Virus record (IMG/VR): IMGVR_UViG_3300024999_000057 | Location: 38,670 to 102,669 of that record | DNA from: a virus | DNA length: 64,000 nucleotides | Direction: 5' to 3' (one strand) | Shown: positions 6,614-64,000 of the stretch, piece after piece | Layout of the letters: each line of letters starts with the position of its first letter | Numbering within the stretch: the first letter of the stretch is position 1 | Program-made: the position numbers and the translations under genes | Notes under the pieces: generated by a model | What the model saw: only the letters and a program-made list of their open reading frames with translations | The model's database searches: none | What the model was told of the DNA's origin: nothing

Positions 6614-7185
6614 ATCCCGAACTTATAAAAACCTGTGCGGTCCTCTGCGACCAAAGCTATTCAGATGTGAATCCAAATTTCGTCACTGTGGACGATTTAA
6701 GGTACGGGGTTTTTGAAACAGAGCACGGAAAAATAATCTGCATCCGGGGAACGGACAATCTGGAGAATTGGGGCGTGAACGCGAATGTTTTGCCCGCGAA
6801 GTCTTGTGGTGGTTTTCTAGCCCACAAGGGGTTCATAAAAGCCTACCGAGAACTCTGCTCGGGTGGGATGCCTACGACCAAAAATCCTTCCGTCATAGCA
6901 ACTGGGCATTCTCTTGGAGGCGCCCTGGCAACTCTGCTAGCAGAGCACACAGGGTGCAAATTAATTACTTTTGGATCACCAAGAGTTTATTGGAGATTTG
7001 GAAAAGCGCCTAAATTGGATTACATCAGGATAGTAAGAGACGACGATCCGGTTCCAGAAGTTCCCAAGTTCCTCTACAGGCACACCCAGGAACCTCTTGT
7101 ATTGAAAGACGGTGACCACAGGCATTTGCAAGTCAAGGATCATTTTATGAAGTCGTACCTTGAGGCTTTAAAGGAGTTAAAATGA
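6610..7185 (+). CDS. class 3 lipase (alpha/beta hydrolase)
   Basis: IRGTD, AHKGF, TGHSLGGALA nucleophile elbow, TFGSPRV, DDPVPEVP, terminal DHF. Confidence 0.9.
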   Translation: MNPELIKTCAVLCDQSYSDVNPNFVTVDDLRYGVFETEHGKIICIRGTDNLENWGVNANVLPAKSCGGFLAHKGFIKAYRELCSGGMPTTKNPSVIATGHSLGGALATLLAEHTGCKLITFGSPRVYWRFGKAPKLDYIRIVRDDDPVPEVPKFLYRHTQEPLVLKDGDHRHLQVKDHFMKSYLEALKELK

Positions 7186-7367
7186 AAGCGGGATTGAAGA
7201 AGAGAATTGTTGGGCACAAGTTGTCCTCCATTTTGGGAGTGGTAGGCGGGGCTGCGTTGGCGGGTGCTTCTGGTTATTATCAGGCGTCGGGTGGTTCTAT
7301 GGCAGACTGGAAGCCGTATGCAGTTGCGGCTGGGGTTTCTGTGGTAGGGCTGCTGTACAAGAAATAA
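7182..7367 (+). CDS. holin-like two-TM protein
   Basis: 61 aa, two hydrophobic segments, basic termini, last gene of the lysis cassette. Confidence 0.5.
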   Translation: MKAGLKKRIVGHKLSSILGVVGGAALAGASGYYQASGGSMADWKPYAVAAGVSVVGLLYKK

Positions 7368-7394
7368 AAAGTTCCTTCCTCCAAGGGGAACGAG

Positions 7395-8063: not shown

Positions 8064-9962
8064 CTATATCCCTGAGTAAAATTGCCTGTGGGGGAAATCC
8101 TGCTCGCGCCTAACTTTGTGCCATGATTTAACCGAGGTCAGGAAACCCACAACGCGGGTCAGCTTGTCCACAATTTCTCCTCCGCATTCCGAGCAGGTCT
8201 CCGAGATCCCCACGGTCATGTGGCCGTTCTCGCATTTGTTCAGTAGGAAGTTGATCGCGAAGTAGATGACCCCAGCTTTAGCTGCAGCCTTAATCAAATC
8301 CACCACCAGCTTGGGATCTTCGATCTTCTGCTCCACGTTCAGGTGGCAGATGGAGCCCCCAGAGAAGTGCTTGTCGAAAAGCCCTTGGAGCATTATGCGA
8401 TCCAACAGGTCCGCCTCGACCGTAAGGGGGATAAACTGGTTGCTGTAGAGGTCGTAGCGACTATTGAACCCCAGCAACCGGTCCTTCTCCGCGAGCTTCA
8501 CCGAAACATTTTCTCCAGGGATCTGCTCGCAATTGTGGGGCGACTTGAGTTTCTTCTGCCACCTGTCGTTCTCGGAGTTGATCGTGTTCAGGATTGCCAG
8601 CACGAAATCCTGCCCGTCTCTGGTCATTATGTCATAGCCCATGATCTCACAGGCTTCGTTCAGGCCGTTAACCCCGCAGGTCGAGTATTGCTTGTTGAGG
8701 TCCATGAACCCATGAGAGTAAAGCGGGAGGTTCCCGTTCTCGATTCTCTTCTTGACGATGTGCCTTTTCGTGTTGTTGATTCGGGAGCACGTCCCAACTA
8801 ACCGCTCTACCTCGGAGAAGAATTTCTCGGGGTCCTTTTTATACCGGAAGGCCAGCTTCGGCATGTTGATGGTGACTACACCGAGCGAGCCGATTTTGCT
8901 GGAGCCAGAACCGAAGGAGTTGAAGTACTCGTTGTCGGTCTCGCTGCGGAGGCGGCAGCACGAACTGAGCGTTGACGATTTCCCGGTGTAGATGTTGATG
9001 AAGCCGAATTCGAGGTTCCTCTCCGCGACCTGGTTGAGGAAGGTCTCGTCGTGGATTTCTCCTGAATCATCTACTGCGAAGCACGCAGTCGTTACCGGGA
9101 ACGTAATGGCGGTTCTTCGCATTTCGGTGTTCATGACATCGAGGAAAAGCATCTGCAGCTTTTTCACGATCTCGATGTCTGGAGTGGTGCCGTCAGGGAA
9201 AACGTAGTTCGGACAGAGGCTCCCCAAGAATTCCTCGTCGTAAACCGAGACATTCGTGAAGGGGCTCTGGGATGCCCTGAGCGGCTGATTGACGGTGTAG
9301 ATGAAGGACACGAGATTCTCCTTCACATAACGCCAGCAATCCTCTTCGCTCGCGAAGCTGAAGTTAGCGTCCATCTTGGTTGCCAAGATGTTCTTGACGT
9401 AGTAGCTCATGACGATCAGGAGATCCGCAAGTCCTGCTGCTCCCAGCGTCGAATTGCTGGCGAGCACGACGAACTGCTCCAGTTGCGACTTGAAGCTGTA
9501 GAGGTACTTGGGAGGCACCGAGGTGATTTTGCTGATCATCGGGAGCCCGAGAAGCATCACGTCGTAGGTCGAGTAGTTGAAGCAGTAGGCTTGGGACGAT
9601 CCGATACCATGAACGTCATTCACGTAGATGTCCCCGCAGACCTGCATCTCGATAACCTCGTCAGATGTCTCCTTCCCGTAGAGCTTCTTGAAGTGCTTCC
9701 ACAGCATGTAGTAGGAATTCAGCTTAAGGAATGGCTTGGGCAACTCCGCGTTGTAGACGATGATGCTCATGTCGCCCAAGTTGGAGTTGGCGTCTATCGA
9801 GACATCAGCCGTAGTTTTAGCTGCGAAGAAATCCTTGGAGAACTTGGGGAGGTCGAGTTGCTTCCCGATCCCATCCATATCGAAAAGCTTTTGTGGATAC
9901 TTGGATTTGAGGAGATCCATCAATTCTTCGAACTGAGGGTCGTAACTGAAGAAGATATTCAT
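8064..9962 (-). CDS. nrdD: anaerobic (class III) ribonucleoside-triphosphate reductase
   Basis: QSPFTN, SSCCRL, GSLGVVTIN, EQIPGE, C-terminal CxxC and TRVVGFL glycyl-radical motif; no ATP cone. Confidence 0.95.
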   Translation of the reverse strand: MNIFFSYDPQFEELMDLLKSKYPQKLFDMDGIGKQLDLPKFSKDFFAAKTTADVSIDANSNLGDMSIIVYNAELPKPFLKLNSYYMLWKHFKKLYGKETSDEVIEMQVCGDIYVNDVHGIGSSQAYCFNYSTYDVMLLGLPMISKITSVPPKYLYSFKSQLEQFVVLASNSTLGAAGLADLLIVMSYYVKNILATKMDANFSFASEEDCWRYVKENLVSFIYTVNQPLRASQSPFTNVSVYDEEFLGSLCPNYVFPDGTTPDIEIVKKLQMLFLDVMNTEMRRTAITFPVTTACFAVDDSGEIHDETFLNQVAERNLEFGFINIYTGKSSTLSSCCRLRSETDNEYFNSFGSGSSKIGSLGVVTINMPKLAFRYKKDPEKFFSEVERLVGTCSRINNTKRHIVKKRIENGNLPLYSHGFMDLNKQYSTCGVNGLNEACEIMGYDIMTRDGQDFVLAILNTINSENDRWQKKLKSPHNCEQIPGENVSVKLAEKDRLLGFNSRYDLYSNQFIPLTVEADLLDRIMLQGLFDKHFSGGSICHLNVEQKIEDPKLVVDLIKAAAKAGVIYFAINFLLNKCENGHMTVGISETCSECGGEIVDKLTRVVGFLTSVKSWHKVRREQDFPHRQFYSGI

Positions 9963-10028
9963 TTATGCTTGGTGCTCCTGTGGTGTTTGAAATGAAAGGC
10001 TGGCAGTTCTCCACCAGCCTTTCTAAAA

Positions 10029-10466
10029 TTAAATTCCCGAATGGCCGAAGCCGCCCTGCCCTCTTTCCGATTCGCTCAGTTCGTCCACCTCTTCCCACTG
10101 GATCGTCTCGAACTTGTTCAGCACGAGTTGGCAGATCCTGTCGCCGGGATTGAGGGTGAACGGCTCGGTGCCGTGGTTGATCAGGATGGCACCTACGGTT
10201 CCACGATACGATTCGTCGATGGTACCCGGAGAATTAAGCACCGAAATGCCATGCTTCAACGCCAATCCCGACCTCGGGCGTACCTGTATTTCATACCCTT
10301 CGGGGATTTCCACACTAATCCCGAGGCTGACCAATTTCCTGTCTCGGGGCCAGAGAGTAAGAGGCTTTTCGATAGCAGCCCTCCCGTCACAACCAGCATC
10401 CCCGATTCGGGCGTACACAGGTACTCCGAAATCTGCCAGATTTTTAACCTTAACGGTTACAGGCAT
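10029..10466 (-). CDS. dut: trimeric dUTPase
   Basis: AGCD, RPRSGLA, GTIDESYRG, RICQL, RGQGGFGHSG motifs. Confidence 0.95.
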   Translation of the reverse strand: MPVTVKVKNLADFGVPVYARIGDAGCDGRAAIEKPLTLWPRDRKLVSLGISVEIPEGYEIQVRPRSGLALKHGISVLNSPGTIDESYRGTVGAILINHGTEPFTLNPGDRICQLVLNKFETIQWEEVDELSESERGQGGFGHSGI

Positions 10467-10736: not shown

Positions 10737-11007
10737 TGAAAATCTCCAGTTTCTCTTTGATGTTCAGAAGTTGGTCCGCTGCGTTGTGAAGTTTCACAAG
10801 CTGCTTGTCGATGATGTGGGTCATGTAGCGAGCCTCGTCAGAAGTAAAGAGAGGCTCGCAGCCAGGGCAATCGCCTTCGGCCTCTTCATGGGAAATGAAA
10901 AGGACCGGCCCAGTGCAGATAGGGCAGACGTACATGAAGCCATCGGGAACTTCGAATTCAACTGGTTCTGCTATCGGGTACTCGCATTTGCTGCAGTAAT
11001 ACGTCAT
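10729..11007 (-). CDS. zinc-ribbon protein
   Basis: Three CxxC pairs. Confidence 0.55.
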   Translation of the reverse strand: MTYYCSKCEYPIAEPVEFEVPDGFMYVCPICTGPVLFISHEEAEGDCPGCEPLFTSDEARYMTHIIDKQLVKLHNAADQLLNIKEKLEIFND

Positions 11008-11021
11008 TCTGACAAGCTCCT

Positions 11022-11642
11022 TTAGGCTACGCTGATTTCAGCGGGTTCGATGTTAAGCATGTGGACATCCGGGTTCGACGATGCCATGTCCGCGAGATGG
11101 ACGACGATTTCGTGGAGTGAGTACTCTTCAGGGAACGCTTTGACTGCGTGCGCCGGATTCTTCCTGATCGACCACCTACCCATGTGCCAGGCGATGCTTC
11201 CTGTGATGACAGAAAGCATCGGGACTTCCTCGCCCCTCTCTGCGTGGAACTCTCGCGCTGCTCTATGCACGAAGAGGGCAGAAGAAAAATCGTGATCCTT
11301 GGAGGTGTGCCTCTGCTTCACCTCGACGCCCTTCTCGTAGTCTGAGTATTTCAGGATGTCGTGGAGGAGGCACGCTGCGATCACCGCATCCATGTCGTCG
11401 TTCTCGAAGCCGTAGGCTCTCCCGAAACGAATCCCGAAGGAGACAGTGGATTTCAGGTGGTTGACCAAGCCGTAGGGCTCAAGCCTACTCTGTGGTGGGT
11501 GGTATTTACCGGTCGAACTGCTAGCTACCTGAGTCAGGTACGTAGGCGCCTTCATAAGTGTGAACGCCACGAAATCCTGGATCAGCGGATTTTTGATTTG
11601 CTTCAGTTCAGCTTCAACTAATTCGATAATTTCTTCGCTCAA
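11022..11642 (-). CDS. HD-domain phosphohydrolase (YhaM-like phage family)
   Basis: ASSSTGKYHP, GLVNH, LLHDILK, HMGRW, HLADM. Confidence 0.85.
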   Translation of the reverse strand: MSEEIIELVEAELKQIKNPLIQDFVAFTLMKAPTYLTQVASSSTGKYHPPQSRLEPYGLVNHLKSTVSFGIRFGRAYGFENDDMDAVIAACLLHDILKYSDYEKGVEVKQRHTSKDHDFSSALFVHRAAREFHAERGEEVPMLSVITGSIAWHMGRWSIRKNPAHAVKAFPEEYSLHEIVVHLADMASSNPDVHMLNIEPAEISVA

Positions 11643-33826: not shown

Positions 33827-34038
33827 ACCTCTTCATCCTCCCAGCAACTTGCGTGAACCAACTGTCTCTTCGACCCGACCCGAAATCTCACCACCACTTT
33901 CCCTGAAATAACTTCCCCACACTTACTCCGATTCGAGTGCCCACCTGTGACGACCACAAGCGCCCTCACAATTGCTTTGTCCTGCTCCTTGAACGGCTGG
34001 TTGCAAACCGCGCAGACGTTAGAAAATCCTCCTGCCAT
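33823..34038 (-). CDS. small zinc-finger protein
   Basis: CAVC...HASC. Confidence 0.6.
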   Translation of the reverse strand: MAGGFSNVCAVCNQPFKEQDKAIVRALVVVTGGHSNRSKCGEVISGKVVVRFRVGSKRQLVHASCWEDEEV

Positions 34039-34066
34039 TTCTACCTCCCATTCAGATGTGAATTTG

Positions 34067-34549
34067 TTAGAGAGCCGTTACCACAACACCTAGCCCACTG
34101 GCTCTCAGGACATCGAGATTGTTTTCTCCGTAAGCGACCAAGCAGATTGGTGCTCCAGAATTAAACGGAGCCCTCTTACCGTCTACGTAGTGGAAATGCG
34201 GGCGCCCCTTGATGAACAGCACACCTGTCGCTTTGCCCCAAATTGTCTCGTAAAACATCGCTGTCTCAGTTCTAGCAGGAATTAAAGCGATGCCGTTGTT
34301 GTGCTGGGCCATCTTTCTGAGCCACTTCACTGCTTCCCTACCGAACGGTGGATTCAGCCATATTCGGCCCTGCCACTCTTGATTCAGCCCCTCTTGCTCG
34401 ACTGTATAATGTCGCGAAGCGGTAGGCCACGGTCTAACAATCGGAGCACAAGGGTCCAGGTCAAAGGTACCTAGTGGGGCCAGTATTTCGGGTGGAGTAA
34501 GCCACTCGTCGTTTTTCATTTTGGCGCTTTGGTGCGCAGATAATCCCAT
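34067..34549 (-). CDS. phage DNA N6-adenine methyltransferase (Dam-like)
   Basis: DEWLTPP, LDPCA, WLNPPF, LIPARTET, IKGR. Confidence 0.9.
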   Translation of the reverse strand: MGLSAHQSAKMKNDEWLTPPEILAPLGTFDLDPCAPIVRPWPTASRHYTVEQEGLNQEWQGRIWLNPPFGREAVKWLRKMAQHNNGIALIPARTETAMFYETIWGKATGVLFIKGRPHFHYVDGKRAPFNSGAPICLVAYGENNLDVLRASGLGVVVTAL

Positions 34550-34583
34550 TTCTACCTCCCATTCAGCTGTGAATTTGATTAGG

Positions 34584-34877
34584 CTAAATTTCTAACTCCC
34601 CAGACCTACGGGCCTCATCCAAGCGCGCCTGACCTTCTTCCTTCGTCTGCAAGCGAGGCCACCACAGCCCGTCTGGTACCTTGATCCCGGTCATCATCCC
34701 GACCGGGATAGGCACTATGAAAAGGTAATTCTCGGTGCAATGCTCGACGGCCTCTTCCTCGGTCTCGAAGAGCCCTTCCAGCATCCAGCCGTTTACCTGC
34801 CCATCGTCAGCGATACCATTTACGTGTTGCCCAACCGCGTACATTTTCCTGATCTCAGGATTTTCCCACCATTTCAT
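34584..34877 (-). CDS. hypothetical cassette gene
   Basis: Start MKWWENP lies inside repeat copy 3 with GGGAGG RBS. Confidence 0.65.
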   Translation of the reverse strand: MKWWENPEIRKMYAVGQHVNGIADDGQVNGWMLEGLFETEEEAVEHCTENYLFIVPIPVGMMTGIKVPDGLWWPRLQTKEEGQARLDEARRSGELEI

Positions 34878-34923
34878 TTCTACCTCCCATTCAGATGTGA
34901 ATTTGATTAGTCGCGGGTCAGCC

Positions 34924-51183: not shown

Positions 51184-51540
51184 TCAACCCTCAATAATGT
51201 CCGAGATCTCCTTCAGAACCTTCTTACCTTTAGGAGTCAGGTAAACCGCGTTCGCCTTCCGGTCGAAGGTATCGGGGCGCTGTTCGACCAACTCGTAACC
51301 CGCTTTCCTCTTAGCTCCCGTCTCGGATTCCACCAGGTAGACCGAAAGTTTTTTCACGTTTCGAGAAACGGTGCCTTGCGGCCACCCAAGTTTATCCGCT
51401 ATTTTCGGCTGGGTGATCCCATCCTCCTCAGCTATCGCTAAGAGCAGCATGACGTGCTGCAGCGGAAGTTCAGCGAAAATTTGCTCCAGCACATGCTGCG
51501 ACTTCTTGAATTTCATGAGACCCTTAGTTAAGCCAGCCAT
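51184..51540 (-). CDS. MarR-like winged-helix regulator
   Basis: LLLAIAEEDGITQPKIADKLGWPQGTVSRNVKKL...DRKANAVYLTPKGK. Confidence 0.85.
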   Translation of the reverse strand: MAGLTKGLMKFKKSQHVLEQIFAELPLQHVMLLLAIAEEDGITQPKIADKLGWPQGTVSRNVKKLSVYLVESETGAKRKAGYELVEQRPDTFDRKANAVYLTPKGKKVLKEISDIIEG

Positions 51541-51631: not shown

Positions 51632-51982
51632 TTAGGCTGAGGTTTTAGCCATCAGCTCCTTGAAAATCTTTTTACCCTTGACGGATAGAACCACTACGCG
51701 CTCCCGTCGATTCCCCAAACTGACCTGCAGGCGAATCAACCCAAATCCCATTTTTATGGCCTTTCCTGCCCCGTTGTGGCCTACATAAGCAGGACCCAAT
51801 AACCGCAGCATCTTGGTCAGGGTACATCTGCCAATTCGAGAAAGGTCCTTAAGTTCCGAGATCGTAATGCCCTCGTTTTCAGCCACTAGCAGAAATAAGG
51901 CCGCAAATGCTGGCGAAATGCCCTTGATTCTCTCCTTGACCAACTCCTGGAACTGCTCCGCATGATCAGGGTCGAGAGTCAT
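51632..51982 (-). CDS. MarR-like winged-helix regulator (paralog)
   Basis: LFLLVAENEGITISEL...NRRERVVVLSVKGK; GGAGG RBS before MTLDP. Confidence 0.75.
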   Translation of the reverse strand: MTLDPDHAEQFQELVKERIKGISPAFAALFLLVAENEGITISELKDLSRIGRCTLTKMLRLLGPAYVGHNGAGKAIKMGFGLIRLQVSLGNRRERVVVLSVKGKKIFKELMAKTSA

Positions 51983-53107: not shown

Positions 53108-53713
53108 TTAAAAATGTCGATATTCCCTAGCCAATTTCAACACTTTTCGTGAATACTTCGGGTTCCGCCTGCCCCTCTCAAATGACCCAGTGCCTAAGTT
53201 GTAGACCTGCAGGCCGTTCCGGACCCCGTACTTCATCGTGTACTCTTTTAAAAGTACAGCAGAGCACCTGATGTTAACCTCGGGATCATACTTTTCAGAC
53301 TCCTTCGTAATTAGGGGGAACCTATCGGCATGAGCTTTGAAATCTACTTGCCCCGAGCCTTTAGCGCCGGTCCTGCTTCTTGCAAATGGGTACCCCTCAG
53401 ATTCGGCAGTGATTGTCCCGACTAATAAACTCAGGTCAAGATGCTGCTCTCTTGCGGCTTTGATCGTAGCTGCTGCCTGGTACTCAGCAAGCTCGGACCA
53501 AAGCCTTTCGTTCTTCTCCATGTACCAAAGCTTCAGCCTTTGAGTCGTAGCATCAACTTCATGCTTCCTCCCTTCAAGCAAAACTTGGGCTTTTTGATCC
53601 ACCTTCCTAACATCCAAGAGCGCCTTGGTTGCGACCGCCGTTGCTGCTGCAGTTAAAATCACCAGCAGAACTCCGATCTGGGCCAGGTGAGCCACCCGGA
53701 TTTTAAGCCTCAT
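53108..53713 (-). CDS. membrane-anchored lytic transglycosylase (SLT domain)
   Basis: ITAESEG, SRTGAKGSGQV, DPEVNI, YNLG; N-terminal TM. Confidence 0.85.
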   Translation of the reverse strand: MRLKIRVAHLAQIGVLLVILTAAATAVATKALLDVRKVDQKAQVLLEGRKHEVDATTQRLKLWYMEKNERLWSELAEYQAAATIKAAREQHLDLSLLVGTITAESEGYPFARSRTGAKGSGQVDFKAHADRFPLITKESEKYDPEVNIRCSAVLLKEYTMKYGVRNGLQVYNLGTGSFERGRRNPKYSRKVLKLAREYRHF

Positions 53714-53858
53714 TCAAAACTCCTTTTCTCAAAACGTACTCCTTGTCAATCAACTCTCTGAGGATCAGGGATTTGTTGGATTTCCCTGTGCCTAGCCTAA
53801 CGAGTTCATCCAGTTTTTTCGTAGTGTCCTCGTCGAGAGCGATGCAATGCTTGACCAT
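53703..53858 (-). CDS. ribbon-helix-helix (CopG-like) regulator
   Basis: KHCIALDEDTTKKLDEL...NKSLILRELID. Confidence 0.7.
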   Translation of the reverse strand: MVKHCIALDEDTTKKLDELVRLGTGKSNKSLILRELIDKEYVLRKGVLNEA

Positions 53859-53899
53859 CACTTTTAAATCACCTCCTTTTAAATTCAGATATGAATTTG

Positions 53900-54714: not shown

Positions 54715-55392
54715 CTACCCAATCCTCACCAGCAGATTCTTGACGCCCTGTGAAGTCCAGACCTTTTTCTTCCTGGGAGTCTGGATTCCTGCTTCAGTCA
54801 ATTGCTGAGCCAAGGCGGTTAAAGAGGTGATTCCTTGGTTCTGGAATTTGATTATTTCAGGTTTCAATTTCTCGGCGCGAAGATCCGCTTTGGTCCGGTT
54901 CTTGAGAGAGCCTTGGATTCTGCCATCTCCAAATTTGGCTTCATCTCTGTTCAAGTGGCACGCCTTGCCCAGTTGAACTCCCTTGGCCTTAGCCGCCTTC
55001 AGGCCGTTCTTGGTCCGCTCCCTGATCCTCTCCAACTCGTACTCAGCTACGCAGCCGAGCACGTTCAGTACGAACCTGCTTGTGTTGGGGAAGTCGCAGA
55101 TGATGATCTCGACTCCGGAATCCAGGATCACGGTGAGGAACGAGAGGCTCCTCGAAAGTCTGTCAAGTCTTGCTGTGATCAGCCTGCAGCCGGTCAACTC
55201 GCAGTAGTTCAGGGCCTCCTTGAGAACCGGTCTTTCCTTGTTGGAGCCAGATTCTACCTCGGTGTACTCCTTGATGACTTCGAGATTGTGACGGGTTGCG
55301 TAATCAGCAACTATGGCTCGCTGAGCGTCGAGTCCGTGTCGCTCTGACTGTCCTTTGGTTGAGACACGGCTGTAGAAAATGCACCGTTCCAT
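54715..55392 (-). CDS. small serine recombinase (resolvase/invertase family)
   Basis: YSRVST, ESGS..RP, LDRLSR, AEYELERIRERT, AKGVQLG, C-terminal DNA-binding segment. Confidence 0.93.
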   Translation of the reverse strand: MERCIFYSRVSTKGQSERHGLDAQRAIVADYATRHNLEVIKEYTEVESGSNKERPVLKEALNYCELTGCRLITARLDRLSRSLSFLTVILDSGVEIIICDFPNTSRFVLNVLGCVAEYELERIRERTKNGLKAAKAKGVQLGKACHLNRDEAKFGDGRIQGSLKNRTKADLRAEKLKPEIIKFQNQGITSLTALAQQLTEAGIQTPRKKKVWTSQGVKNLLVRIG

Positions 55393-58128: not shown

Positions 58129-58302
58129 CTAAAAATCCCAGTTCCTCCCAGCATCTTCGTTCAGAACGAAGAGGATTTCCAGCTCCTCCCCACACTCCGG
58201 GCAGTCCTGATCCGCCGAAATGAAGGAGCAATCTGAGGCAAGGACCAGGTTTTTATTAATGGAGTACCAAGAAATCTCGTTGCCGCAGTTAGAGCACTTC
58301 AT
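58129..58302 (-). CDS. small zinc-ribbon protein (not in ORF track)
   Basis: MKCSNCG...CPECG, 57 aa. Confidence 0.55.
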   Translation of the reverse strand: MKCSNCGNEISWYSINKNLVLASDCSFISADQDCPECGEELEILFVLNEDAGRNWDF

Positions 58303-58379
58303 ACAACCCCCTGTTTTGTTTAGGTTCTAGTGTGAGAATTCACATTTCAGAACATTAAAGAATTATAATAAAAAAAGAC

Positions 58380-58475
58380 TTGACAAACTATTAGAAACCG
58401 TGGTATTTTATAAACCGGCGCTAGCCGATGAAGTTATAGGTTTATACCCCTAGTAACTGGGTAGGGATTAGCGAG
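58380..58475 (+). repeat. antisense promoter plus conserved 36-nt element, copy 1
   Basis: TTGACA..TGGTATTTT then GTTTATACCCCTAGTAACTGGGTAGGGATTAGCGAG (58440-58475). Confidence 0.75.
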
Positions 58476-58514
58476 CCTTTTACCAGAATAGTACTTGACT
58501 AATTCGATAAAGAA

Positions 58515-59353
58515 TTAATCCCTCGCTACCGAGTAGCAAACCGATTCCCAGTTGAAGGTTAATTCGAGTTCCATCGCTCCATTCTCCCAGGTCCAGAACT
58601 TGAGTTGGAATCCTCCGATTCCTAGCCGGTTGTACACCAGATGATTTGGAGCCTGGAGGATCTCCTTCAGCCTGGAGAACATCGAGCAGCAAGAGGAGCG
58701 CATCGCGCCGGTCGTAGGAACCTGAGATTCTCCGTTGGGTCCCTGATTCACCCAGGTCCACCTAGTAATCAGCATTAGGGCTCTCACCTTTTCGAAGTCG
58801 AATTTTTCCATGATTTCGGTGAAGGTATTTTCTATGTTTTGGATTTGAGTTGCGTTCATTATTTTAATCGGTTATCGTCCAGGAACCGCAGGAAGCGGTA
58901 TCCAATGTGTAGGTGTCTCGTCGTAGAAAACGCTACCGTGGACCTCGAAGCACTGATCCGGGATGTTCCAGATCATCACGAAAGGCCTCTTCAGGTGAGG
59001 ATCATAGCCGAGGATGTGGCAGTCCTTCGGAGCCGTCTCGATTGGTTGCCAGTTCATTTTTATGCCTCCTCAGCTTTTTTGATAGCCTGCTCGGCGATAA
59101 CCAGCAGGTCCGAAATATCGTTGGTGCTCATCGGGCCGAAAGCCTCCATCCCCAAAAGCCTGGCGTGAAGATCCTTCAGAGCATCCAAGAGAGCAGGAGC
59201 CTGGGAGATTAGGAGGGCGTTGGCCTCGGTTTCTCCAAGGACAAGGTAGGACAAGTTGCGCACCACCGCCACTCCCCGCCCTGCTCCCCATATCGTAGCG
59301 TATTGATTTCCATGCCCTGTTATCTCCCAAGGCCTCTTCGTGTGCTTGCTCAT
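58515..59353 (-). CDS. three accessory genes (58515-58859, 58872-59057 DUF551-like, 59060-59353)
   Basis: WQPIETAPKD...PTHWIPLP; MSKHTKRPW...ANALLISQAPALL phage families. Confidence 0.65.
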
Positions 59354-59396
59354 TTCCTACCTCCAATTATTAGAGAAAAATAATTTAATTTGCCAC

Positions 59397-59490
59397 TTGA
59401 CAAATCCCAAAAGTGTGGTACACTTAAAATCGCCGAAGGCAAAAGAAGATTATAGTTTATACCCCTAGTAGTTGAGTAGGGTTTAGCGAG
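59397..59490 (+). repeat. antisense promoter plus conserved 36-nt element, copy 2
   Basis: TTGACA..TGGTACACT then GTTTATACCCCTAGTAGTTGAGTAGGGTTTAGCGAG (59455-59490), 32/36 identical to copy 1. Confidence 0.75.
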
Positions 59491-59543
59491 GATTTGCTCT
59501 CTACTAAACCCTACTGATTTGGTGTACAATTATTTCCCTGGAT

Positions 59544-60690
59544 TTATCCCGTCACATTTAGGCCGATGAAATCCGGCCTGGATAACTCCTTCAACTTGTC
59601 AGCCACTTCCTTCGTCCCGAACTCATGGGTCCAGACGGGCCGACCGAAAAGCTCCTCGGCGTAAGCGTGCATGGCTGCGAAGCTACCGAGTAGGAATCCG
59701 GTGTAGGCTGAAACGATTGCTGCTTCTCTTTTGGTCATCTTTCAAATCTCCTTTTCCGCATTCTCTGTGGATACATCCAGAAAAGTGAATACACCTTTAG
59801 GTAAATTTTTCATTTTTAGGTCTCCTAGTTGAGCAGGCAAGCCTGCAAGAGTTCAACCAAAATTCTGAGTTGTTCGGGATCGAGGTTCATTCGGAGACCT
59901 CCTTCGGCGGATCAGGAAGGGGCATCCAGTGAGTGACCTCGTTGGTGATGCACCAACCTTCGGAGTCGGTGATGGTCCACGCTGATTCGCAGCCAGGCCA
60001 CACTTCGCAGTATGCCACGCAGATGCTTCCCGACTTTCTGTAGACAAGCACAGGGTAGCTTCGTAATGGCCCATCCCATTCCTGACGTAGTTCAGGCGGT
60101 TCATTAACGGGTTTCCAGTTTGTCTGACTCATTTTATTACTCCTTTCGTGCGTAAACCTCGCCGTCGATCACGACTTGATAGTTTTCGAGCCAGTCAGCC
60201 TCAGCCAGCCCTATCATGGAGGACTTGATTTGCGAGATGCTCGCAATGTGAAACTCCCCTTTGAATGGGAACTGGTTGTACTTACCGGGATCTCCGAGTA
60301 TTTCTACGTAAGCATAATGGTCGGTCATCTCGTCCTCTCCTTTTACCTGAATTTCGAGCGCTACACCACTTTAAATGGCACTTATAGCACAAGTGAATGG
60401 GAATGTATACGTGAATTTTAGTTTGGCCTTTGTAGGGCATCCTCGTTCGTTTCTTCCTCCCAAATCCTCTGCAGGTCGTCATCCTTGTGCCTGATGTACT
60501 CGACACCATGTGTGTTCAAGAGGAGGTTCAAATTATTCATGAGTGCCCTAACGTGTGCTTCCCGGCCTCCTGAGTTGTCGCGGAACCACTCCAGTTCCTT
60601 CCTGATCTGCTTCGCCAGCACATCCGGATCACCTACCTTATTGAGCCAGGTCAGCCGGGTTTTGATCGTTTTGATTGATGGGATGTTCAT
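59544..60690 (-). CDS. small accessory genes (59544-59738, 59887-60132 DUF551-like, 60137-60328, 60418-60690)
   Basis: ORFs with RBSs; VTHWMPLPDPP. Confidence 0.6.
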
Positions 60691-60722
60691 TTTATTTCTC
60701 CTTCAAAAATGTGAGATTTCAC

Positions 60723-61355
60723 TTAAACCCGCTCGCCGTTTTCGTAGAACTCGTACTCGTTGGCCCTGATTGCATCGTCAAGCTGCTCGTCGGAGTTCAG
60801 GTAGTCGTTCTCGGTGCTGAGTTGTTTATAAATCCAGTCCATGAAATCCCGGAGGCAAGATGCCACCTCCTCTTCAGCGGACTCAGACACGTCTTTGTAA
60901 TCGAGGCGGCTTACCTCGATGGTCGTGCTGCGTGAATGGCTGTAGTGGCCTGTGTGTTTCACCGTAGCGTGAAGTTGGTAAAAGTTAGCCTTCTGGACTT
61001 CCTGCAGTCGGGCCACGATCCGATGTAGATTCTCGTCCACAGGAGCGTAGGCTTTCAGCTCCTTCAACGCTCCTTTCTTGTAGTTGTAGTAGCCTTCGAA
61101 GCAAGCGCCATCTCCCTGCGAGTAGAATCCGGACCACCAGATGTTAGGCTCCTGCCTGGTGCCTCCTCCGTAGAGTTGCACGGAGTGGGTGGAAAACTCG
61201 ATGCCGAGGATCTCCCCTACACGAACCGCGTCTTCGATTACGTAGTCATAATCGTTCTGGTCGATTAGTTCCCTCCACCAATCCCGTGCCTTCTCCTTTG
61301 CTGATTCGGAAAGCTCGTCGAACTGGTAGGCCAATTTTGTTATTTCTCTGGGCAT
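60723..61355 (-). CDS. conserved mobile-element protein (family often labelled antitoxin of TA stability system)
   Basis: YQFDELSESAKEKARDWW, SGFYSQGDGACFEG, ANEYEFYENG. Confidence 0.65.
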   Translation of the reverse strand: MPREITKLAYQFDELSESAKEKARDWWRELIDQNDYDYVIEDAVRVGEILGIEFSTHSVQLYGGGTRQEPNIWWSGFYSQGDGACFEGYYNYKKGALKELKAYAPVDENLHRIVARLQEVQKANFYQLHATVKHTGHYSHSRSTTIEVSRLDYKDVSESAEEEVASCLRDFMDWIYKQLSTENDYLNSDEQLDDAIRANEYEFYENGERV

Positions 61356-61394
61356 TTCGTGCCTCCCTTAAAATGTGAATATTCACTTCTGAAT

Positions 61395-62433
61395 TCATAC
61401 CTTCCAAACTTGGATGGTAAATTGCTTGTCCTCCGGGAACCTCTGCTTCATTTTTTGAACTGCCTCTTCCTCTGAAGCAGCGTCGATGTAGTAGCCTTGT
61501 CTTGCTGAGGGATCTTTGTGTCCGGGGCATCCGGGATCGTAGCAATCGGGACGTGTTAGGCGGAATTGAGTCATTTTATTTCCTCCTTTTAAATGTCGAG
61601 AAATCCAGGGCCATTCCCTTCTTCGTCCTGGAGTATCCATGCGGTGGTGCCGTCGTCGAACACGAGGGCGTAGAAAACATCCCCTCCAAAGTCATCAGCT
61701 CCGTCGTCCTTAACAATCCGGACAACCCGCTTGCCCATGAGTTGACCGTAGTGTCTCATGTAAGGGTCCGAGGCCAACAAAGCAGCCTCCATCGGGTCTC
61801 CTACTTCAGGGAAGGATTGATTAACGCGGCCAATAAATTCCTTCATTGCCTCGGCCTCTTCATCGGTGAAAATCCGCTCGCCGGTCTTGATGTCCACTAC
61901 ATCGAACGGATCGTCCTCGAAGTGGTACATCTTGCCCAAGTCCTGCAACTCTTCGCAGAAGCTGTAGAAGGTCTTTTTGATGAGCGGGTTGCAGCGGTTG
62001 ATTGCTTCGATTACTTTGGACATTTTATTTCCTCCTTAAATGTGAGATTTCACTTTTTGGTTCGCTCAGTCAATTCATCGACCACCAGAATATTTGCGAA
62101 GTAATCCCCTTCATTCCCTGCGGATGAATACTTTTCCTCCACGAAATCGTCCTCTTCAAATCCCTGCTCCAGAGCGTCCCTCCTGAGTTCCTCGATGTAC
62201 TCCGGATCTGCGAAGTAGCCTTTGTAGCCCTTGTCTTTGCAGTAGTCGGCTATGGCGTCATGACAGGCGCTGAGATCTGAGCTCCCGTGAATCAGGAATC
62301 CAGCCGAGACATAGCAGCCGGTATCAAGCCAGATGATGTAGGTATTGGGCCAGAAATGCTTGTCCTCGGGATTTACGTAGTCGATGGCTCTACGGTAGTC
62401 TTTTAATCTGGTGGCGAAGTCTTTGCGGTTCAT
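61395..62433 (-). CDS. three accessory genes (61395-61574, 61589-62023, 62050-62433)
   Basis: Each has a strong RBS and junction motifs. Confidence 0.6.
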
Positions 62434-62775
62434 AATGCCTCCCCTTAAAAAATGTGAAATCTCACTTTTCCTACCTAAACATCCAGCTACACAAAACCAA
62501 CCCGCTAATCACAACCATCAAAACCAGGATCTGTCCAATGATAGTTTCTTCGTCTCTTTTGGCTGCGAGTTCGGCACGTTGTTTTAAAACGGTGTGAGAA
62601 ACGTAGTTCACGAAACCACCTCCACTCTCTCGCTACGAAGATCGACCCAAGCCAATCCATCGTTAAACTGCACCAAAACCATATCCGCCAATTCTTCAAG
62701 GCAGGTTCCACATCCGGTTCCTGCGACGAAAACTTGTTTATTTTTCATTTTTAGTTCTCCTTTAAATGTGAGAAT

Positions 62776-63456
62776 TCACTTTCTTCCCATTACCATCTTC
62801 ACGGCTTCATCCGCCAGTTTCCCGAAGTCAATCTCAGGAGCATACGCCGCCGCATACGCCGCCGCCCTCGCCGCATACGCCGCCCTCGCCGCATACGCCG
62901 CATACGCCGCATACGCCGCCGCCCTCGCCGCATACGCCGCCGCCCTCGCCGCATACGCCGCCGCATACGCCGCCGCCCTCGCCGCATACGCCGCCCTCGC
63001 CGCATACGCCACCGAAGGATTCTTCAGATACTCCTTCGCAGCTTCGACAGCTTTCCGAGGCCTGTCGTCTCCAGGCATGACATCCTCGAAGTGGTGCAAA
63101 ACCACCTCAGCACATAGGATAGCGAAGGCGACCCGAACCAGCTGTTCCTTCTCCGATCCTACCCACTTAGGCAACTTCAACTCCTTCACGACTTCCTGGG
63201 TCAAGCTACCTACTTTCCCGAAGTCGTGACAAACTACGGCGCCTTTAATCTCCCAAAGTTTTGGGTTGCTAATATCCGCATGAATCGGGTTAAGGAGGAA
63301 CACCAGGTTCTTGTTCCTGTACGCATGGAGCACGTCGGAGGAACAGAGTCGCGGATTATCCTTTTTAGGCTTGGTGTGGATCTTTTCGACTTCGCCGTAG
63401 GGGTAGCCGTTGTAGGTGGTTCCGTCTTGATTAGTGAGTTTGAATAATTTCTGCAT
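62776..63456 (-). CDS. Imm5-like domain protein with Ala/Tyr/Arg low-complexity repeat
   Basis: LCSSDVLHAY, CAEVVLHHFE...DDRPRKAVEAAK, AAYAAR repeats. Confidence 0.65.
   Translation of the reverse strand: MQKLFKLTNQDGTTYNGYPYGEVEKIHTKPKKDNPRLCSSDVLHAYRNKNLVFLLNPIHADISNPKLWEIKGAVVCHDFGKVGSLTQEVVKELKLPKWVGSEKEQLVRVAFAILCAEVVLHHFEDVMPGDDRPRKAVEAAKEYLKNPSVAYAARAAYAARAAAYAAAYAARAAAYAARAAAYAAYAAYAARAAYAARAAAYAAAYAPEIDFGKLADEAVKMVMGRK
62840..63010. repeat. coding tandem repeat (GCCGCATAC / GCCGCCCTC units)
   Basis: Directly visible 9-12 nt units. Confidence 0.95.
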
Positions 63457-63664
63457 TTTGATCTCCTTTAGGTTAAAATGTGAGAATTCACTTTTGCCTT
63501 CAAATCCACTTCTGAATTTATCAGGGCATGAAAATAGCCACGGTGTAGTGATAGCCGTAGTTCATGTACCAATCCCAGGTCGTTTTGATTCGTTTGGTTT
63601 TGCCTGATTTTAGTTTGACTTCGCAGATGATGGACATTTTTAGTCCTCCCTAAAATGTGAGATT

Positions 63665-64000
63665 TCATATTTCCTGACTAGGCACCCACTCGTAAATAAC
63701 TTCAGCTTTTTCCCCGGCGTGAAGCCTCCAAGTCTTGCCGTCGAAACTTGGTACCACTCCCATCTCCCACAATTTCTGGCAAGGCTCCCAAGGGTTAGGT
63801 CCTAAGTTTTCCACGTATTTCCATTCGGTTATTTCAGGAAAGAACGAGGCAGTATAGGCCCACACCGAGTCCCGCACCGAGTCCCGCACCGAGGCCCCCA
63901 CCGAGTCCCACACCGAGTCCCACACCGAGTCCCACACCGAGTTCCGCACCGAGTCCCACACCGAGTCCCCCACCGAGGCCCACTTTTGGAGTAATTCAAT
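63665..64000 (-). CDS. SVWD/SVRD-repeat protein (partial, 5' end outside the window)
   Basis: Frame open to the window edge; LWEMGVVPSFDGKTWRLHAG C-terminus. Confidence 0.7.
   Translation of the reverse strand: MELLQKWASVGDSVWDSVRNSVWDSVWDSVWDSVGASVRDSVRDSVWAYTASFFPEITEWKYVENLGPNPWEPCQKLWEMGVVPSFDGKTWRLHAGEKAEVIYEWVPSQEI
63859..63983. repeat. 12-nt coding tandem repeat (CCCACACCGAGT)
   Basis: About 10 near-identical units. Confidence 0.95.

Follow-up and report, generated by a model that had tools for sequence, protein, structure and literature searches.

A near-palindromic site at the gene junctions of a phage accessory array, considered as a possible operator and recombination joint

Why are the genes of one phage accessory array preceded, one cassette after another, by the same short palindrome? 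The question is raised by the last 64 kb (38670-102669) of a 102,669-bp IMG/VR phage contig (record IMGVR_UViG_3300024999_000057, here G000), a stretch referred to below as the window, whose numbering is used unless the genome is named. The element concerned, called motif 2, is by its sequence a near-palindromic double-stranded DNA (dsDNA) site with the core GTGAR-WW-YTCAC and A/T-rich flanks. The explanation preferred here, to which we would give about an even chance of being right, is that it is an operator and roadblock site resembling the stoperators of mycobacteriophages and also a joint for homologous recombination resembling the PeSLs of T4-like phages.

The palindrome and its position

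On the coding (minus) strand motif 2 reads (A)AAGTGA-N4-TCACATTT, followed by a few A/T bases, an AGGAG-like sequence and ATG; on the plus strand the 18-mer is AAATGTGA-N4-TCACTT. The shorter pattern TGTGA-N4-TCAC gave 10 strand-matches in the window where 0.43 are expected, and none of 100 shuffles reached 10. The 18-mer is found with no mismatch at 60707, 61371, 62038, 62450, 62764 and 63476, in a uniform orientation, and these six are the only copies with at most one mismatch over the whole 102,669-bp contig (a reversed control gave 0 matches). A regular-expression scan of the minus strand allowing two mismatches added only the copy at 63653, which carries both, and the copy at 58328-58347 is reversed and fully palindromic. 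An earlier note on this stretch had listed eight copies, seven of them within 3 kb, and this count is borne out as six perfect 18-mers, one degenerate copy and one reversed copy. The genome's one other GTGA-N4-TCAC, at 10785, belongs to a perfect 16-bp palindrome (TTGTGAAGTTTCACAA, 10783-10798) inside a coding region; it is devoid of motif-2 flanks and could be due to chance.

At each junction copy motif 2 sits directly 5' of the Shine-Dalgarno (SD) sequence, and the 18-mer ends 14-19 nt before the ATG in G000 and 13-23 nt before it in the relatives described below. The upstream gene's stop codon falls in or beside the motif, and the internal TGA is the stop of the open reading frames (ORFs) ending at 62050, 62776 and 63665. 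The same note had described both the order of motif, ribosome-binding site (RBS) and ATG on the coding strand and the supply of these three stops; the order is true of every junction copy and the stops were found inside the motif. The 14 specified bases are nearly invariant across copies, whereas the flanking genes are 70-90% identical. The junction flanks (A-GTGA...TCAC-ATTT) keep one orientation throughout and the orientation of the core varies; the spacing is N4 at all junctions and N3 in one upstream palindrome.

G000 is a temperate phage whose contig is rated linear and 91% complete; it carries a tyrosine integrase at genome 6928-8166, and between about 46 kb and the right end every gene is on the minus strand. 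A megablast search with 24 kb matched no GenBank phage, and in a pattern scan of IMG/VR multiple copies of motif 2 appeared in only a few contigs of one sample group. The related contigs are G001 (32 kb), G002 (82.6 kb, 73% complete), G003, which nearly duplicates G002 in the array region, and G004. Each carries 5-13 copies with at most two mismatches, on a single strand and in the same motif-SD-ATG order, and those of G002 are restricted to 43.7-55.2 kb. A scan beyond the window, which had been proposed as a check, therefore gave no further 18-mer copies in G000 and found arrays in G001-G004. When genome contigs were scanned for the motif followed by GGAG, only single chance matches and the end of an unrelated Anaerotalea alkaliphila element were returned, so that neither a prophage array nor a clue to the host was obtained. 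That element (TATAATTCATAAGTGAAGTATCACATTTGGAGCAATC...) is multi-copy, ends in the 18-mer plus GGAG at L145, L150, L151 and 9 other loci, and terminates many A. alkaliphila contigs; its match to the motif is coincidental.

Gene exchange at the junctions

The arrays of G000, G001 and G002 were compared by gene calling, all-against-all BLASTP and blastn blocks. Conserved and unique genes alternate between motif-2 copies, and the homology blocks shared by relatives begin and stop at these copies: of the 31 block ends that three genome pairs have inside the arrays, 18 are at most 25 nt from a copy, compared with 10-16% expected (binomial p = 1e-5, 5e-4 and 0.012). G000 has a 226-aa Imm5-like gene with one motif-RBS unit that neither G001 nor G002 possesses, and this cassette is bounded by two identical 18-mers at a place where the other two genomes have one. 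Additionally, where G000 has a 210-aa gene (phrog_5162), G001 and G002 have an unrelated one of 177-188 aa, and homology with G001 restarts at 60707-60724, on the first base of that copy. Gain, loss and replacement among the three genomes thus break at motif 2. The gene-by-gene cassette joint that the earlier note had suggested is supported in this way, and the comparison of gene order in relatives that it had recommended ties gene-content variation to the motif-2 copies. Because each junction carries the same 18 bp and a similar RBS, the junctions would be sites of homologous recombination.

Could motif 2 be such a joint and nothing else, either as the target of a site-specific recombinase (attC-like) or as neutral homology spread by cassette duplication? 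The breakpoints at the motif, the one cassette lying between direct copies and the absence of promoters from the cassettes agree with this explanation, as does a serine recombinase encoded in G000 at 54715-55392 on the minus strand (225 aa, Resolvase domain 1.6e-28). However, the recombinase gene looks like an accessory insertion in G000 and lacks an equivalent in the syntenic region of G002, no integrase of the integron type was seen, the phage integrase is far off beside the attachment region, and 18 bp is far below the size of attC. A joint alone would also leave unexplained the copies in regulatory regions, a pair at a fixed distance of 51 bp and the conserved reversed copy, all described below, as well as the near-invariance of the 14 specified bases next to genes that have diverged. 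We consider a joint without a regulatory role distinctly improbable.

The junctions of G000, all on the minus strand, can be followed from the right. The degenerate copy at 63653-63670 (ATATGAAATCTCACATTT, read on the coding strand) stands before the SD and ATG of a 38-aa gene (63521-63637), and its TGA ends a repeat-protein ORF at 63665. The copy at 63476-63493 (AAGTGAATTCTCACATTT) precedes the 226-aa gene (62776-63456, Imm5-like with a Pfam score of 33 bits) and forms the upstream boundary of the cassette absent from G001 and G002; beside it, at 63504-63517, is a copy with one mismatch of motif 1, the second repeated palindrome of this genome, which is treated below. The downstream boundary of the inserted cassette is the identical 18-mer at 62764-62781, whose TGA is the stop of the 226-aa gene and which precedes a pair of 46-aa genes (62608-62748 and 62471-62611). 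The copy at 62450-62467 (AAGTGAGATTTCACATTT), with a core that runs opposite to that at the orthologous junction of G001 and G002, stands before a 127-aa gene (62050-62433), whose stop is in turn the TGA of the copy at 62038-62055, placed before a 144-aa gene (61589-62023) and then a 59-aa gene (61395-61574). At 61371-61394 motif 2 (61371-61388) is fused with motif 1 (61381-61394) before the 210-aa phrog_5162 gene (60723-61355), and the copy at 60707-60724 precedes a 90-aa gene (60418-60690). By Pfam and PHROGs the array proteins are mostly unknowns, with Imm5-like, DUF551, DUF7736 and phrog_5162 matches, and PADLOC returned no defence matches for them. The 226-aa gene contains in-frame tandem units of the GCCGCATAC type (62840-63010).

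The remaining copy, at 58328-58347 (TGTGAGAATTCACA), is palindromic, of the type found in promoter regions, and lies between a 57-aa Zn-ribbon gene (58129-58302, minus strand) and a plus-strand sigma70-like promoter at 58380-58409; a counterpart is kept at the same place in G002 and in locus L212. That promoter is one of two on the plus strand, the other being at 59397-59424, each with 10/12 matches and a TG. Both point against the all-minus gene flow, and each is followed by a similar hairpin-prone element of about 40 nt (tatacccctagta..gggtagggattagcgag), which is a candidate for an antisense or small RNA. In L212 a motif-2 copy stands beside the second of these promoters.

Head of the array, duplex DNA and the possible readers

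The head of the array falls in a gap of G000 and is seen in the relatives. G001 is collinear with both ends of G000 (G001 7049-7393 corresponds to G000 102306-102650, and G001 10939-11201 to G000 1-264), so that about 3.5 kb is absent between them; since G001 places the contig ends that far apart, the assembly probably broke at tandem repeats. Tandem 24-bp repeats are present at the contig start (genome 1-100), and in-frame 12-nt tandem units (63860-63990) are found in an ORF running off the contig end. In G001, G002 and G004 the missing stretch opens with tandem 24-bp repeats, a conserved 142-144-aa gene, a terminator and about 450 nt of non-coding DNA, and continues with the N3-spaced palindrome AAATGTGAAGTTCACATTT, a second terminator, a pair of motif-2 copies, a T-run hairpin and the first cassettes. 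The two copies of the pair are exactly 51 bp apart in these three genomes and flank a conserved 33-bp element with TGTTACAAAAT. Further copies in G001 adjoin a TTGACT-N17-TATAAA promoter, and in G002 one copy caps a perfect 12-bp hairpin of the 5' untranslated region (5'UTR). Altogether the relatives have 2-4 copies in the head control region, and junction copies number 7 in G000 and 8-10 in G001 and G002. As the minus strand between 60.4 and 64 kb contains no promoter-like or terminator-like site, the array looks like a single unit transcribed from the head region.

The non-coding region of about 450 nt, located in L122 at 9740-10160 (minus strand) with equivalents in L121 and L211, is conserved in these three genomes and has many apparent stems. 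Rfam gave nothing at gathering scores in L121 and L122, and at E<=1 only sub-threshold long-hairpin artefacts in the upstream non-coding region of G001 and nothing in the window between 57.5 and 64 kb. An Atlas search with the conserved 142-aa protein next to the head returned only unnamed viral clusters.

The preferred explanation supposes that a dimeric regulator, encoded by the phage or the host, most likely reads motif 2. Bound at the copies in the control region that heads the leftward accessory array, it would block initiation; bound at the copy before the RBS of each cassette's first gene, it would form a roadblock, and the array would be silenced gene by gene as by stoperators in cluster A mycobacteriophages. 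The junction copies would serve homologous recombination as well, allowing cassettes to be added, deleted and swapped as at the PeSLs of T4-like phages. The motif with its setting and conservation, the breakpoints, the strand-symmetric core and the weak RNA fold are observations; that a protein binds, that it forms a roadblock and which protein it is are inferred.

Is the site read as duplex DNA at all? Among 37 distinct copies the coding strand shows the asymmetric 12-mer GTGAAATCTCAC in 7 and its reverse complement GTGAGATTTCAC in 6; there are three further reverse-complement pairs of cores, GTGAG is never present on both arms, and at one orthologous junction the core is flipped in G000 relative to G001 and G002. 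Such reverse-complement pairs among the loops are understandable if a reader with two-fold symmetry recognises duplex DNA, but not if an RNA loop is recognised. As RNA, the core would form a hairpin with a 4-bp stem of -3.1 kcal/mol, the 62-nt context folds no more stably than shuffles for most copies (z about -1.8 to +0.9) with the SD unsequestered, and the variants ATGA..TCAC and GTGA..CCAC disrupt the stem, with no compensatory double changes seen among the copies. An asymmetric core found in both orientations and a weak RNA hairpin without compensation together argue for dsDNA read by a dimer.

These observations bear on the explanation that we rank second, in which the motif acts on RNA: a hairpin 5' of the SD would be a translational operator or enhancer, used by a phage protein or ribosomal protein S1, or a processing site of the RNase E type, at which the polycistronic transcript would be cut into one mRNA per cassette. 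Its position 13-23 nt from the ATG, always on the transcribed strand and with the same flanks (AAGTGA...TCACAUUU), speaks for such a role, and so does the upstream stop codon in or beside it; an ACAUU after the stem resembles, by inspection, the RN|WUU preference of RNase E. Additionally, the SAS/ESAS repeats at gene starts of cluster K phages have been proposed to act in translation (PMC3203893). On the other hand, the low stability of the hairpin, its contexts folding no better than shuffles around a free SD, the uncompensated variants and the reverse-complement loops all oppose an RNA role, and the array mRNA would include neither the reversed copy at 58328 nor those upstream of promoters. 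We judge action on RNA to be unlikely. Processing at the hairpin, which the earlier note had envisaged, is not favoured because the weak 4-bp stem is broken by variants without compensation.

Another possibility is that motif 2 is a promoter for a phage-modified or phage-encoded RNA polymerase or sigma factor, each cassette having its own transcript. In its favour, every cassette has a single copy in a directional context, a small protein with sigma70 region 4 is encoded by the phage (genome 9822-10205), and the TTCACA within motif 2 resembles a -35 hexamer. The motif, however, ends 13-23 nt before the ATG, which leaves no room for a leader containing the SD; only the SD and start region are conserved at the distance of a -10 element, and a core free in orientation is not promoter-like. 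A promoter identity was rejected on geometry, and we consider it very improbable.

Several points weigh against an operator and roadblock site. Every junction copy has an A before GTGA and an A after TCAC, whereas the promoter-region copies are symmetric (T...A), and a symmetric dimer site does not explain these fixed A/A flanks; the bias may reflect an orientation-dependent or RNA-level role, avoidance of ATG, or homogenisation by recombination (concerted evolution). The putative promoter between the two head copies does not pass the consensus scan, and the head itself, outside the G000 contig, is deduced from relatives 80-90% identical. The copy counts are not independent, because copies in relatives are partly orthologous, and both the binding of motif 2 and its reader rest on inference. 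The earlier proposal of a second regulon receives indirect support from the copies at the head element, the promoter and the 5'UTR hairpin of relatives and from the strand-symmetric core; the part that gave it to a paralogous regulator did not gain, as nothing links the MarR-like paralogs to motif 2.

The paralogs matter through motif 1 (ATTCA-N4-TGAAT), whose TTCA-N4-TGAA core occurs 34 times in the genome, nearly always with at least one GTGAAT arm. Motif 1 is everted (ATTCAC-NN-GTGAAT) and motif 2 is inverted (GTGAA-NN-TTCAC), both being built on the same half-site, and at 61371-61394 ATTCAGAAGTGAAT and AAGTGAATATTCACATTT overlap through AAGTGAAT. It had been noted previously that the half-site of motif 2 matches one arm of motif 1 in the opposite arrangement and that the motifs are fused at this place through a shared half-site; the GTGAAT arms of the motif-1 copies and the common AAGTGAAT confirm both. 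Over the whole genome, motif-1 copies with a GAAG core have ATTCAGAAGTGAAT on the coding strand in 7/7 cases and those with a GATG core in 10/14, so that motif 1 is also oriented, with its GTGAAT arm beside the SD. At 34036-34910 three motif-1 copies are each followed by an identical gggaggtagaaATG start region and a single gene, a cassette-like layout as in the motif-2 array. Motif 1 also occupies the spacer of an 11/12 sigma70 promoter at 58127-58099, and a genome-wide role of the stoperator kind fits motif 1 better than motif 2.

Operators of the MarR family are palindromes or pseudopalindromes of 16-20 bp bound by a winged helix-turn-helix (wHTH) dimer, often near the gene of the regulator itself. 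The form of motif 2 fits such an operator, and two MarR-like paralogs are encoded as tandem wHTH genes on the minus strand, kept in G002 at 88% and 63% identity. Paralog A (51184-51540, 118 aa, MarR_2 at 1.2e-8) has motif-1-like sites on either side and is a candidate for reading motif 1; paralog B (51632-51982, 116 aa) has no Pfam match, is 29% identical to paralog A (E 8e-10), finds its best, weak PDB matches in the MarR family and is a candidate reader of motif 2. The sites between and after the two genes are only motif-1-like, with no motif-2 copy nearby. The family of paralog B comprises five clusters among 5.8 billion proteins; an identical protein is on a 110-kb contig and another relative is 48% identical. 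The loci recovered were of the same clade or did not reach the array, motifs 1 and 2 are both confined to that small clade, and among these loci no phage was found with the regulator or motif 2 and without the other. AlphaFold on paralog B (5 sequences) reached a pLDDT of 47, which is insufficient for a fold search. Further candidates for DNA binding are a 52-aa ribbon-helix-helix (RHH)-like protein (53703-53861, sub-threshold), the sigma70 region-4 protein and Zn-ribbon proteins. The CRP-type dyad is TGTGA-N6-TCACA, and an operator of this type was rejected because the spacing is N4 (one N3) and not N6.

A broader reading joins the two motifs: one half-site, GTGAAT, would be used in two geometries, everted across the genome and inverted in the array only, each addressing one mini-MarR paralog and giving two roadblock networks, with the array site acting in addition as a gene-capture joint without an integrase. 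This is quite unlikely in our estimate; if true, each captured cassette would come automatically under the regulator of the array.

Comparison with known repeat systems

Repeated motifs at phage gene starts are already known as stoperators, SAS/ESAS, cluster O dyads and PeSLs, and a mechanism is known only for stoperators. The SAS/ESAS (start-associated sequences) of cluster K and the 17-bp dyad of cluster O (TGTTCGG-N3-CCGAACA, more than 30 copies) are repeats without assigned function at the starts of genes in the non-structural arm, mostly in one orientation and sometimes containing the upstream stop codon (PMC3203893, PMC4351075). Motif 2 differs from these repeats in sequence, host clade and restriction to a mosaic array; SAS, furthermore, is an asymmetric repeat with the SD inside it, whereas the SD is found downstream of motif 2. 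Integron cassettes with attC sites share with the array the lack of promoters in cassettes of one or a few genes, imperfect palindromes, a single upstream promoter and variable content. Motif 2, however, has 18 bp compared with 57-141 bp for attC and stands at the 5' RBS side of the cassette; there is no integrase at the array in G001, G002 and G004, no IntI type was seen, and the phage integrase of G000 is distant. An integron was rejected given the lack of IntI and the short site, and cassette exchange is better explained by short-homology recombination.

In its evolutionary role motif 2 behaves like the PeSLs (promoter-early stem-loops) of T4-like phages, short regulatory repeats that flank small ORFans in hyperplastic regions and through which recombination leads to indels and replacements (PMC2839356, PMC4122927). 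Motif-2 repeats similarly flank ORFans of a variable region, with the clustering of block ends and the one insertion between two copies described above. A PeSL nevertheless combines a strong sigma70 promoter with a terminator stem-loop, and the motif-2 junctions, 18-bp dyads fused to an RBS, have neither.

If binding is true, motif 2 would be a compact example of a site that both regulates accessory genes and drives their modular exchange, and its 18 bp would offer a simple means of locating, in metagenomes, the hypervariable arrays of early or accessory genes that this clade carries. The immediate impact is limited, since the clade is a small one without cultivated members.

Functionally, the closest known system appears, by analogy, to be the stoperator network of cluster A mycobacteriophages, studied with L5 gp71 and the TipsytheTRex repressor, where one repressor site at the promoter recurs more than 10 times in the short spaces between the genes of long operons, its orientation correlates with the direction of transcription and the proposed role is gene-by-gene silencing of elongation (PMC9283540). 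Motif 2 resembles it in being present both at the head control region, as seen in relatives, and in many short intergenic spaces. Stoperators are 13-bp asymmetric sites found genome-wide and bound by a monomer with a helix-turn-helix and a Stoperator domain (PMC9283540), whereas motif 2 is a dyad with its core in both orientations, confined to one accessory array; its junction flanks all point one way, but its core does not. The regulators seen in G000 are MarR-like, RHH-like and sigma-region-4-like only, and no sequence search was aimed at a Stoperator-domain repressor. Compared with these systems, motif 2 joins three things: features of a regulator site, a strict position before the RBS and recombination breakpoints between close relatives.

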